A DNA stretch of 34,170 nt from a virus (lineage: Duplodnaviria; Heunggongvirae; Uroviricota; Caudoviricetes): positions 1 to 34,170 of IMG/VR virus record IMGVR_UViG_2706796290_000001. One strand, 5' to 3'. The position numbers and the translations under genes are program-made. The notes beneath the pieces were generated by a model, which was not told where the DNA came from, searched no databases, and saw nothing but the letters and a program-made list of their open reading frames with translations. This document shows positions 16,318 to 22,905 of the stretch, in pieces; the first letter of the stretch is position 1; the number at the start of each line of letters is the position of its first letter.

Positions 16318-17028
16318 TGAGTAAATTAAGAATTACCCTTCGGGGTATGGGTCGTGTATAACCCTTAGATAAACTGCAAAACAGTATAAAGTCGTAACGG
16401 CAGTTATGGCGCAGAGTAAAAATCTGTCAAGTACACACTCAAGGTATCATACTTATGTGGCGTAGAGCCAATCGGTGTAAACCATTTAAGTATGGGGGTG
16501 TAATGCTCCTGAGTCGATAGGCAATAAGAGAACTTGAAGGTATCTAGCGAAGTTGATTGTCAAGTCAAAACGCTGTTTACCATTGTGAGAGGTATATAGA
16601 GTTTAACAGGTGGTGCTGAATCTCGTAGTCCTAAACCAAGTGGACAATATATGCTTGAAACATCGTGCATGGTAAAGCACATTAGGTAGTGTGGTATTGA
16701 TGGGTTCAAAAGATCTGTTAGCCACAGAGAAACCACTATCTATGCAATACAAATTTCATTTTAGGAAAAAATTAAATTCAAAAGTGTTTCTCACGTTGGC
16801 ATGAAAGGTGCTTACATAGTAATGGGTTGTCCATTGCACATTTAACCTGAAAGGTTATTTGTATTTTCATGAAAGGATTATGTTTGGTAGGCATACTAGC
16901 ATAGTTTGAGTATTGGGAGAGTAGTTCCAACGTCTAAGAGTGGTTAGCTATACTGACCAGCACTGATCACTACTATATAAAGTATAGTGGATAATGAGGG
17001 AAAAGATAATCCTCTCAAGGTGGTCATT
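16318..17028 (+). ncRNA. large (~700 nt) structured non-coding RNA, GOLLD/ROOL-like candidate
   Basis: No ORF; at least 15 hairpins or long-range stems visible by eye; sits between tRNA-Asn and tRNA-Asp; family not confirmed. Confidence 0.7.
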
Positions 17029-17057
17029 TAAACGTGTAATCTCAGCGTTTTACTTGT

Positions 17058-17675: not shown

Positions 17676-17750
17676 GCACAAGTAGCTGAGATGGATTAGC
17701 GCTACCCTGAAGAGGTTGAGAGGTTGGATCGTTACCAACATTGTGCACCA
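17676..17750 (+). tRNA. tRNA-Phe(GAA)
   Basis: Cloverleaf, CCA; T-loop ATCGTTA and G37 are non-canonical. Confidence 0.85.
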
Positions 17751-17778: not shown

Positions 17779-17854
17779 TTACCATAACCTAAAGGCTCGA
17801 AGGGGCGGTCTGCAACATCGTTGTTGGTGAGTTGAAGTCTCACATGGTAATCCA
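17779..17854 (+). tRNA. tRNA-Cys(GCA)
   Basis: U73 identity base, CCA; T-loop TTGAAGT. Confidence 0.87.
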
Positions 17855-17867
17855 AAGTGATTTTTAT

Positions 17868-17955
17868 AGAGGTTAAACCAGATAGGTTCTGGGACACCCT
17901 GCTAAGGTGATCGTGTTAGAAATAGCATTCGGATCGAGACCGATGGCCTCTGCCA
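17868..17955 (+). tRNA. tRNA-Ser(GCT)
   Basis: Long variable arm with GAAA loop, G73, CCA; T-loop ATCGAGA. Confidence 0.88.
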
Positions 17956-18478: not shown

Positions 18479-18601
18479 GGACACTTCCTAAGGTTCTTTC
18501 TACAGGTTCGAAACTGTTTTAAGAATTGCTGGTGCTAGGTTTAGCGTCAAGAATCATTCGAAGGGTTCTTGGGGTGGTGAGTTCGATTCTCACAGTGTTC
18601 C
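18479..18601 (+). ncRNA. tRNA-like RNA (acceptor stem and T-arm intact; D and anticodon arms replaced by three hairpins; no CCA)
   Basis: GGACACT/AGTGTTC stem; GTGAG-TTCGATT-CTCAC T-arm; 123 nt. Confidence 0.6.
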
Positions 18602-18619
18602 CCCTATTTTAAAGTTTAT

Positions 18620-19246: not shown

Positions 19247-19334
19247 GTCCCTACACCCTCCAAGAGCCTTCTAAGCTCTCGACATTAAATAGGGGGAAGG
19301 TAGTCAGAGTGTTCGATTCACTGTGGGGACTCCA
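19247..19334 (+). tRNA. atypical tRNA-Arg(TCT) lacking a D-arm
   Basis: 7-bp acceptor, AGAGC-CTTCTAA-GCTCT arm, T-arm TTCGATT, CCA; only a 9-nt linker where the D-arm should be. Confidence 0.65.
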
Positions 19335-19335
19335 A

Positions 19336-19411
19336 GCCGAATTAGCTCAGTTGGTAGAGCAGCGCACTTGTAATGCGAAGGTCGTAGACTCGGATTCTAC
19401 ATTCGGCACCA
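19336..19411 (+). tRNA. tRNA-Thr(TGT)
   Basis: Cloverleaf, CCA; T-loop CTCGGAT. Confidence 0.9.
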
Positions 19412-19417
19412 TATTTA

Positions 19418-19507
19418 GGTCGTGTAGCTTAAAGAAAGCAAGAGGATTTATAAACCTTTTCACTAGATAAGTGCTTGATGTGGGGGCAGTACCCACCACG
19501 ACTACCA
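19418..19507 (+). tRNA. atypical tRNA with TAT anticodon (nominally Ile) and long variable arm
   Basis: 7-bp acceptor, A73, CCA; D-loop AAAGA lacks GG; T-loop GGCAGTA; CACT/AGTG variable arm. Confidence 0.65.
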
Positions 19508-19509
19508 AT

Positions 19510-19579
19510 AAGTCCCCCTCTGGGAGGGAAGAGGTCTCCAAAACCACTTAGCTGTGTTCGATTCACAGGGGATTTGCCA
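19510..19579 (+). tRNA. compact tRNA-Trp(CCA)
   Basis: 70 nt; G73, CCA; 3-nt D-loop, extended anticodon stem, 2-nt variable loop. Confidence 0.72.
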
Positions 19580-20912: not shown

Positions 20913-22905
20913 ATGTCGAATATATTTGCACCGTGTAGTCCAGTGCAAGCAAAGTTACTGCAAAGTGATGCAACAATTACAGTTTATGGTGGGTGAATAT
21001 AGGCTCCTTTAAGTAGTAATACTTATCGAATAACCTTGTGAAATGCTGGAAACCCCTTAGAGCCTTGAGTACCGAAGTGTAACAACCTTAAGGATTGGGC
21101 AATCAGCAGGGAAGCCTCTTATTAGAGGAACCCTCAACGACTATCGAAAGGGTAACGAACCGAGTAGAGTAGGGGCAAGTGTCCCGAAGTGCAAGGCACC
21201 TCAAGTAGGTGAAGATATAGTCTGGACTCATGGGAAACCTTGAGCATGCAATTGGCTAATGTGCTGTTGCATGGGTTGGCTCTAACGAAGCCTTCTTAAC
21301 ACAATCACTATGGGGTCTGCGAAAACCTATGGAGGTCTACTAAGACACCTTCAATATGTAAATAGTCCTCATTATGTTGGGTGAAAATACATGCCCCTTT
21401 AAGTGGTGACACTTATCGAATAACCCCTCTAATTGCTGGGAACCCTCTTTGAGGCAATCAGCAGCCAAGCCCAGCAGGGAAGGTTCAACGACTATTCCGA
21501 CAGGAAGTACACTCAAGTGAGTGGAAACGGGGGGCATCTCGCAGAGATGATGATATAGTCTGATCTACATGGTGACATGTAGCAAGGTTAAAACCTTGGA
21601 GTTAGCTTAACGAGCTAACACTAACAAAATGATGTTATCCGTAAAAATGAAGTAGTTCTGAGGGCTGGTGGTGGTGCTTTTGAAGAAGCCAAAGCTTTAT
21701 ACAAGGCATTTGAGCCGAGAGTTAAAATCACAGAGAAACCTATGAGGTTTCGCTTTCCTTCTGGTGCTGTAATTAACTTTGCAGGTGCTGAAGATGAGAA
21801 AGCTATGGAAAAATATCGTGGTCTTAACTTGACTGGCGTGATGGTCGATGAAGGTACACAGTTATCAGAAAGACAAATTTGGTTCTTGATCTCTCGTTTG
21901 CGTAACGGTAAAGATCCAAACATTATGCCAAATATATGGATTACATGTAACCCTGACCCTGATAGTTATTTGTTTGAATGGGTTAAGTGGTATTTATATC
22001 CTGTAGGGCATCCTCTTGCTGGAAGACCTGATAAAGATAAGAATGGATTAAAAAGATATTTCGTATCGACTCCAGAAGGTTTAGTTTGGAGTGATAATGA
22101 ACAGGAATTACTTGATAAGTATCCGCATTTATTTACAAAAGGGACTAGACCACTAAGCTTTAGATTTATTGGTGGTACAGTTTACGATAACCCACCTCTT
22201 CTTAAGAACTCACCTCAATATCTTCAAAACCTACTCCAACAGAAAGACCGAGTAGTGCGAGAACGTGAGTTGTACGGCAACTGGTTTGCACGTAGGGAAG
22301 ATTCAAGTTACTTCAACAGGTCTTGGTGTGAGATAGTTGATAAGCCTCCTGAAAGGGTCCGTAAAAGGGTTCGTTCTTGGGACTTGGCTTTCACATTACC
22401 AACTGAGACAAACCCAAACCCCGATTATACCTGTGGTGTTCGTCTGAGTAAAGATGATGAAGGTACAATCTATGTTGAAGACATGGTTCTTGAAAGGGTT
22501 GGTTCTGGGCAAATTATTGAGTTAATTGCAAAGACTGGTCTAGAAGATGCTGAGATGTTTGGTGTTGTTGAAACAACAATCCCTCAAGATGCTGGTGGTA
22601 TGGCTAAATTTGCAGCTAGGGATATGGCCTCTAAGCTAAGAGAGCATGGTGTATCTCCTATTGTAGTTCCTGTAGGTAATAAAGGCAAGCTCGTTCGTTT
22701 TATTCCATTCTCAGGTGCAGCACAAAATAAACATGTGAAGATTGTACGTGGTGATTGGAATGCAGCCTTCTTTCATCAGTTAGAAGCTTTTGGAAGTGGA
22801 AATAAGGCTGTGCACGATGATGCTGTCGATGCTGTTGCTGATGCTTATAAAAGAGTAGCAGAAAATAGAACGATTGACTATGCCATCGACTTAGCAGTTT
22901 TATAA
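20913..22905 (+). CDS. terL: terminase large subunit, join(20913..20994,21308..21382,21632..22905), 476 aa after splicing
   Basis: Splicing restores Walker A VYGGSMGSAKT; Walker B VMVDEG, TCNPD coupling motif, RuvC-like RSWDLA and HDDAVDA. Confidence 0.93.
20995..21307 (+). mobile_element. group I intron 1 (IA2-like, ORF-less, 313 nt, terminal A)
   Basis: P AAATGCTGGAAA 21041, Q AATCAGCAGG 21101, R TCAACGACTA 21134, S AAGATATAGTCT 21212; U.G at the 5' splice site. Confidence 0.92.
21383..21631 (+). mobile_element. group I intron 2 (IA2-like, ORF-less, 249 nt, terminal G)
   Basis: P AATTGCTGGGAA 21431, Q AATCAGCAG 21456, R TCAACGACTA 21485, S ATGATATAGTCT 21550; omega-G 21631; P10 UACAU region pairs with exon AUGU. 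Confidence 0.94.

Follow-up and report, generated by a model that had tools for sequence, protein, structure and literature searches.

The DNA analysed here, termed the window, is a stretch of 34,170 nucleotides that represents the first 34 kb of the 98,170-bp genome of an Acinetobacter myophage of the AM24/Bestia/Herod/Mithridates group. It carries a tRNA array, in which nucleotides 19247–19334 (+ strand, as are all features of the gene described below) lie 7 nt 3′ of a 93-codon open reading frame and 1 nt 5′ of a tRNA-Thr gene that starts at position 19336 (ARAGORN). These 88 nt specify a tRNA-shaped RNA with the anticodon UCU, an encoded CCA and a normal T-loop, and the D hairpin is absent. 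The acceptor strands are GUCCCUA and UGGGGAC, followed by U-CCA. The NCCA end is a canonical tRNA feature, as are the 7-nt loop CUUCUAA, with U33 and a purine at position 37, and the T-loop UUCGAUU. A first-pass annotation had pointed out the CCA end, the T-loop and the anticodon arm AGAGC-CUUCUAA-GCUCU, as well as the uneven spacing of 9 nt before the anticodon arm (counted from a 7-bp acceptor) and about 27 nt after it, and all of these are present.

Gene finders do not recognize this RNA. ARAGORN makes no call at 19247–19334, at either the default or the 90% threshold, and no match to the Rfam model RF00005 overlaps the locus, even at E ≤ 10; the gathering score of that model is 29 bits, a level that no match to the gene reaches. 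At the 80% threshold, ARAGORN forces a cloverleaf termed 'tRNA-Stop(uua)' onto 19256–19334. This candidate was rejected: over the alignment, 58.9% of the cells in its acceptor and anticodon stems are paired, which is no better than shuffles.

Homologous genes

The homologs comprise 14 distinct sequences, whose sources are three lineages of Acinetobacter phages as well as contigs of uncultured viruses and of metagenomes. BLAST finds identical copies of the gene in phages Bestia and AM24, and diverged copies in two further Acinetobacter phage groups, one with KissB and 14/CRR8 (Saclayvirus) and the other with MD-2021a and phiAB441. The remaining homologs were obtained by scanning IMG/VR and metagenome contigs with sequence patterns. 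The database records of Bestia, AM24, KissB, CRR8, MD-2021a and phiAB441 do not annotate the gene; the KissB record has a spurious opposite-strand CDS annotated across it (L004 627–740).

Twelve of the 14 sequences are exactly 88 nt in length; homolog L088 is one nucleotide shorter and L274 two. The mean column identity is 79% and the stems differ, which excludes a recent origin of the homologs by copying of a single sequence. With a covariance model made from the first 10 homologs, family members score 66–104 bits, and all other sequence in the roughly 800 kb of DNA retrieved stays at 21 bits or below. The pattern scans gave 120 matches in metagenomes and 119 in IMG/VR, most of which are chance matches, situated in coding DNA and scoring 21 bits or less. 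The anticodon is UCU in all 14 homologs; it was forced by the search patterns in 11 of them, but not in the phage homologs found by BLAST. An anticodon-free pattern gave only the known members in IMG/VR, and thus no other anticodon in the 88-nt subfamily; one extra match of this pattern, in a GC-rich MAG, was judged to be chance. The encoded CCA is present in 12 homologs, with L008 ending in CCG and L088 in CUA, and the T stem of L274 is weakened. Some gene copies may therefore be decaying.

The contig that carries L008 (G001) has two Rfam tRNA matches directly after the rewired gene, at 21236–21313 (37.9 bits) and at 21649–21765 (42.7 bits, 117 nt long). Neither is called by ARAGORN, and they may be further non-standard tRNAs.

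Secondary structure

Positions within the gene are numbered 1–88, the window position being 19246 + n. The 5′ strand of the acceptor stem (19247–19254) pairs with 19323–19330, i.e. positions 1–8 with 77–84, and all eight pairs are compensated, with 100% pairing in the 14 sequences. The seven acceptor pairs of the first-pass annotation are present, but the comparison adds an eighth, 8:77, which leaves a T stem of 4 bp. This pair was first detected by RNAalifold; it is C:G in two sequences (the window phage and KissB) and G:C in the other 12, and positions 61 and 77 pair in none of the homologs. The branch is thus divided into an 8-bp acceptor stem and a 4-bp T stem, what seemed to be a T-stem mismatch being an acceptor pair. 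U8 is absent, position 8 being base-paired. The T arm (19308–19322) consists of the stem AGUG/CACU (62–65 with 73–76), in which three of four pairs covary, and the loop UUCGAUU. The discriminator U and the encoded CCA occupy 19331–19334.

A D hairpin is absent between the acceptor and the anticodon arm in all 14 homologs. The 8 nt found there consist of a 2-nt linker (19255–19256; AC here, mostly UC in the aligned relatives), the 5-nt strand CCUCC (19257–19261), and a single A (19262, alignment column 16), which is invariant and similar in location to position 26. The anticodon arm follows (19263–19279, with UCU at 19270–19272); all five of its stem pairs covary and its loop is invariant. Next is a 12-nt segment, CGACAUUAAAUA (19280–19291), that is nearly invariant (columns 34–45), and then the strand GGGGG (19292–19296), which pairs with CCUCC to form a helix, H2, around the invariant A and the anticodon arm. 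H2 (11–15 with 46–50) is paired in 70 of 70 cells and shows five pair types at each of two positions. The first-pass annotation had proposed an enclosing helix, and one does exist and does covary, but the proposed register was one base off: 19256–19260 with 19292–19296 is 70% paired and has no compensation at all, the true signal being one column over.

The connector AAGGUAGUCAG (19297–19307) links H2 to the T arm. It begins with a D-loop-like A-GG-(N)A, in which the GG is at 19299–19300. Among the homologs this segment reads A-(A/U)-G-G-(U/A)-A, and the connector is A-A-G-G-U-A-G-U-C-A-G in the window; G54 never varies, and conservation is 90% or higher at G53, A51 and A56. The equivalents of U55 and C56 in the T-loop, which face this GG, are invariant as well. 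The connector also contains GUC (19303–19305; 57–59), which can pair with GAC (19281–19283; 35–37) of the 12-nt segment. This possible pseudoknot had also been suggested in the first pass. It is paired in 42 of 42 cells and shows one double change, A:U to G:C, in L274; since the compensation is a single event, support is weak. The 3-bp GAC/GUC probably closes a variable-arm-like hairpin around the second H2 strand and so makes the pseudoknot. This stem is 3 bp at most, with its loop engaged in H2.

All four helices covary, including the one around the anticodon arm. Standard pairs are formed in 99.4% of cells, and compensatory changes are found in 18 of 22 pairs (14 sequences). None of 500 shuffles matches the real alignment on any of five measures, and sliding the pairing partners lowers pairing to 39–48%. 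RNAalifold independently predicts the same fold from the alignment. The minimum-energy fold of the single sequence includes H2 and the 8-bp acceptor, and its stability is no better than that of a shuffled sequence (z = −0.72), so that thermodynamics alone is uninformative.

A cloverleaf starts its D region with the ascending strand of the D stem; the D loop, the descending strand, position 26 and the anticodon arm follow in turn. In the RNA described here, CCUCC corresponds topologically to the descending strand and GGGGG to the ascending strand. The order would thus be descending strand, position-26-like A and anticodon arm, with the ascending strand and a shortened D-loop-like segment coming afterwards. 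This order allows H2 to be stacked on the anticodon stem in the manner of a D stem and brings the GG within reach of the T-loop; the molecule would be L-shaped. The order was also restored in silico by moving columns 46–56 in front of column 11 and dropping columns 34–45. ARAGORN then calls tRNA-Arg(tct) in nine of 14 sequences, compared with none of the 14 native sequences and none of the 14 with the moved segment deleted. Versions with the moved segment shuffled are still called in 35 of 70 cases; the exercise mostly shows a restored spacing and is not counted as evidence.

The tRNA array and the arginine slot

Default ARAGORN finds tRNAs for 16 amino acids in the array, and the 90% threshold adds Phe, Cys and Trp. 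This makes the other 19 amino acids, still without Arg, in agreement with the first-pass annotation, and there is no other Arg tRNA in the whole 98-kb genome. AGA is the commonest Arg codon of the phage, with 15.6 per 1000 codons or 36% of Arg, and AGA and AGG together make up 47% of its Arg codons. Neither an ArgRS catalytic domain nor a CCA-adding enzyme was found encoded by the phage, so host enzymes would have to serve.

In the sister phages Mithridates and Ab15, a cloverleaf tRNA-Arg(UCU) is found in exactly the same slot with the same flanks, and the sister-phage DNA around the slot is 93–98% identical to the window. Phage Herod (L001) has a 26-nt 5′ remnant of the rewired gene at 848–873, truncated within the anticodon loop after CUUCU; after this remnant come a cloverleaf tRNA-Arg(UCU) and a PD-(D/E)XK endonuclease open reading frame at 981–1421 (Pfam, E = 8e-30). 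It looks like a mobile cassette has destroyed one tRNA-Arg allele and delivered another. Neither the 91.6-kb genome of MD-2021a nor the circular 88-kb genome of phiAB441 has any RF00005 match, so that the rewired gene is their sole tRNA, and in KissB it is the sole Arg tRNA among 14, none of the 13 others being for Arg. The shared slot, the Herod locus and these genomes speak for equivalence of the rewired gene with an ordinary tRNA-Arg(UCU).

HNH homing-endonuclease genes are situated directly downstream of the rewired gene in two other phage lineages. They are found in KissB (L004 754–1170; Pfam HNH_3), in 14/CRR8 (L005 753–1169; record annotation), in MD-2021a (L006 696–1229; Pfam NUMOD4 and HNH_3) and in phiAB441 (L007 696–1229; record annotation).

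The Herod locus shows that the gene can be destroyed, and together with the rejection by gene finders it might suggest that the window gene is a decaying tRNA pseudogene whose D arm has been lost. The 14 homologs show compensatory pairs in every helix instead, and it is this covariation that excludes a pseudogene. In addition, the single-stranded segments are nearly invariant, and the gene is the sole tRNA of two complete phage genomes.

Other elements of the array

The array contains further RNA genes and elements. A GOLLD RNA (Rfam, 217.6 bits, E = 3e-61) is present at 16682–17048, between tRNA-Asn and tRNA-Asp. Two Rfam group I intron matches, at 20975–21244 (78.8 bits) and 21360–21500 (41 bits), lie downstream of the tRNA array. 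Default ARAGORN misses four tRNA genes: Phe(GAA) at 17676–17750, Cys(GCA) at 17779–17854, Ser(GCU) at 17868–17955 and Trp(CCA) at 19510–19579. The Phe gene has the T-loop AUCGUUA, in which A54 and U58 are swapped, the Cys gene has a 3-bp D stem, the Ser gene is called by ARAGORN only at the 80% threshold, and the Trp gene is compact (70 nt). The tRNA at 19418–19507 (Rfam, 32.3 bits) has the anticodon UAU, a long variable arm and the non-standard T-loop GGCAGUA. Its slot in Mithridates and Ab15 has a gene annotated as tRNA-Met(cat), and it may be a second case of an odd allele in place of an ordinary one. A tRNA-like element at 18479–18602 lacks both a CCA and a clear anticodon loop, although its T arm, GUGAG-UUCGAUU-CUCAC, is good; it is reported as 'tRNA-???' when the ARAGORN threshold is 80%.

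Phages counter tRNA-cleaving defences, and phage tRNA clusters contain tRNA-like RNAs that are not tRNAs, for example the CCA-less element just described. The RNA from 19247–19334 might accordingly be a tRNA-shaped decoy or regulator that acts outside translation, e.g. as a bait for a host anticodon nuclease, the alternative offered by the first-pass annotation, or as a competitor for a tRNA-binding defence protein. The anticodon loop, identical to that of an ordinary tRNA-Arg(UCU) and invariant in all homologs, would suit this role. An anticodon nuclease bait, however, needs only the anticodon stem-loop, and compensatory change has here also maintained the acceptor/T branch with its 12 bp, the CCA end and discriminator position, and the elbow of T-loop and GG. 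The gene also alternates with an ordinary tRNA-Arg(UCU) at one locus and supplies the sole Arg tRNA of a set that otherwise covers all amino acids. As retention of the acceptor/T branch, the CCA end and the elbow is left unexplained by a decoy, this role is considered improbable.

Related genes in phi92 and other phages

A wider search shows that the topology is not limited to the 88-nt genes. Coliphage phi92 has an unannotated 81-nt tRNA-Arg(UCU)-like gene of the same topology (NC_023693, 51875–51955), which the covariance model R1 scores at 38.9 bits (E = 4e-8). BLAST with this gene gives matches covering at least 80% in 242 phage records, among which are Felix O1-like, rV5-like and jumbo coliphages and a Streptomyces phage. 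The enclosing helix of the phi92 type covaries, with CUC/GAG changed to CGC/GCG in the Streptomyces phage Yaboi. The Yaboi gene (L268; NC_048730, 86686–86764) is annotated as tRNA-Val(aac); its sequence is that of a phi92-type rewired tRNA with the loop CUUCUAA, and on this basis the label is probably a mis-annotation.

The phi92 type shares with the window gene the short 5′ strand, the anticodon arm, the bulge, the partner strand, the GG segment and the T arm. It differs in having a 7/5 branch, a 3-bp helix, an 8-nt bulge and a longer D-loop-like segment (AAUUGGA), and in lacking the GAC/GUC pair. A possible variable-arm stem of the phi92 type, GUUA/UAAU, was also considered; its inner pairs are invariant, whereas the outer one varies between G.U, G.G, G:C and a deletion, and this stem is slightly disfavoured. 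The occurrence of a 5-bp H2 with an 8/4 branch in one type and of a 3-bp helix with a 7/5 branch in the other would fit a geometric compensation. With the phi92-type relatives included, the window gene represents one subfamily (88 nt, 8/4) of a wider and mostly unannotated class of phage genes.

Comparison with known tRNAs

No published description of such a rewired tRNA was found in the full-text literature outside subscription journals. The closest comparison is with the ordinary cloverleaf tRNA-Arg(UCU) of bacteria (E. coli argU type) and phages, such as that of Mithridates and Ab15. The gene of these two phages occupies the same locus and presumably does the same job, and the cloverleaf type has in common with the rewired RNA the loop CUUCUAA, a UUCRA-type T-loop, the CCA, the GG elbow motif and a 12-bp branch. 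In contrast to the cloverleaf, the rewired RNA has no D hairpin; it has a long-range 5-bp helix around the anticodon arm and a D-loop-like segment 3′ of that arm. Its branch is 8/4 rather than 7/5, and its length is 88 nt.

An 8/4 division has been described before. Mukai et al. (2017, Nucleic Acids Res 45:2776, PMC5389517) reported (8/4) tRNAs and allo-tRNAs, also from phages, whose 8-bp acceptor stem and 4-bp T stem add up to the usual 12 bp. These are Ser, His or suppressor types that retain both a long variable-arm hairpin and a D hairpin, the latter made of a long stem and a tetraloop; none is described with a D stem around the anticodon arm (PMC5389517). The rewired RNA thus has the 8/4 split of the RNAs of Mukai et al., but neither their D hairpin nor their long variable arm.

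The same split, known from Ser and His tRNAs of some bacteria and from allo-tRNAs, some of them in phages (PMC5389517), raises the question of whether the gene encodes a recoding tRNA that reads AGA and is charged with another amino acid such as serine, in the way of the published 8/4 allo-tRNAs. A short variable-arm-like stem would be in keeping with this. Yet the putative variable stem has 3 bp only, with a loop that is occupied by H2. The discriminator may be U, G or A, unlike the G73 requirement of the SerRS type. In addition, AGA accounts for 36% of phage Arg codons, and in close sister phages these codons are read by the cloverleaf tRNA-Arg(UCU) that occupies the slot. Recoding therefore has very little to recommend it.

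Other departures from the cloverleaf are known. Metazoan mitochondrial tRNA-Ser(AGY/AGN) has no D hairpin and has an unpaired replacement loop, degenerate elbow contacts and adapted partners. It resembles the rewired tRNA in lacking the D hairpin and, coincidentally, in reading AGN. The phage gene differs from it in having a covarying replacement helix and a GG/T-loop pair, and in having to use ordinary bacterial machinery. Plant-virus tRNA-like structures such as that of TYMV attain a tRNA shape by means of a pseudoknot; they form genome ends and have no decoding role. In Cyanidioschyzon merolae, circularly permuted tRNA genes give an ordinary cloverleaf after processing. The TYMV structure and the C. 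merolae genes have a principle in common with the rewired tRNA, namely a tRNA shape obtained from a different strand order.

Proposed function and arginine identity

The reading favoured here, with a probability of roughly 0.78, is that 19247–19334 is a functional tRNA-Arg(UCU) gene of non-cloverleaf form. The first-pass annotation had proposed a re-wired topology for AGA codons, and in the comparison of homologs and sister phages this proposal is supported by the covarying helices, the GG segment, the status of sole Arg tRNA and the allelism with a cloverleaf tRNA-Arg(UCU). The gene would be co-transcribed with the phage tRNA array, and its precursor would be excised by host tRNA-processing enzymes. 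Charging would be by the host arginyl-tRNA synthetase, and the charged tRNA would decode AGA and probably AGG. Acceptance by RNase P, EF-Tu and the ribosome is assumed.

In the proposed molecule, the acceptor/T branch would have the normal 12 bp, divided 8+4. The anticodon branch would consist of an ordinary anticodon arm stacked, by way of one invariant A, on the 5-bp helix H2, which is made of the strand just 3′ of the acceptor and a strand 25 nt further on, past the anticodon arm. H2 would substitute for the D stem, and the A-GG-A segment would stand in for the D loop and dock on the T-loop to form the elbow. We know of no bacterial tRNA that functions without a D hairpin.

The bacterial Arg identity set is A20, C35, U/G36 and A/G/U73 (PMC9976931). 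C35 and U36 are present, and the discriminator, which is U, G or A among the homologs, is within the set. An A is located 1–2 nt after the GG in every homolog, as GGA in 11 of 14 and as GGUA in the window, KissB and MD-2021a. Because the window has GG-U-A where most relatives have GG-A, the main ArgRS determinant is not cleanly placed in the window gene.

Perhaps the rewiring is itself adaptive. The surfaces recognized by RNase P, ArgRS, EF-Tu and the ribosome would be kept, and the D hairpin and core, as seen by a host tRNA-targeting defence or by a phage-made activity that depletes host tRNAs, would be altered, so that a private AGA decoder would outlast the ordinary tRNA-Arg(UCU). This is a speculative proposal and on the whole an unlikely one.

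Significance

To our knowledge, the cloverleaf is taken as universal for tRNAs that work on bacterial ribosomes. The known armless exceptions are in animal mitochondria, where the partners are adapted. In the phage gene, strands in another order build up what looks like the same L-shape, which has been retained under selection in many phages and apparently relies on unmodified host enzymes. If the RNA is charged and decodes, it would place new bounds on the tRNA forms tolerated by RNase P, ArgRS, EF-Tu and the ribosome, and would provide a natural scaffold for the design of orthogonal tRNAs. It would also mean that phage tRNA repertoires are under-counted, and would raise the question of why phages specifically retain a rewired tRNA. 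Should the adaptive proposal be true, this would be the first natural tRNA of pseudoknotted, non-cloverleaf form with a demonstrated role in bacterial translation, and there would be a selective reason for the spread of rewired tRNAs among unrelated phages.
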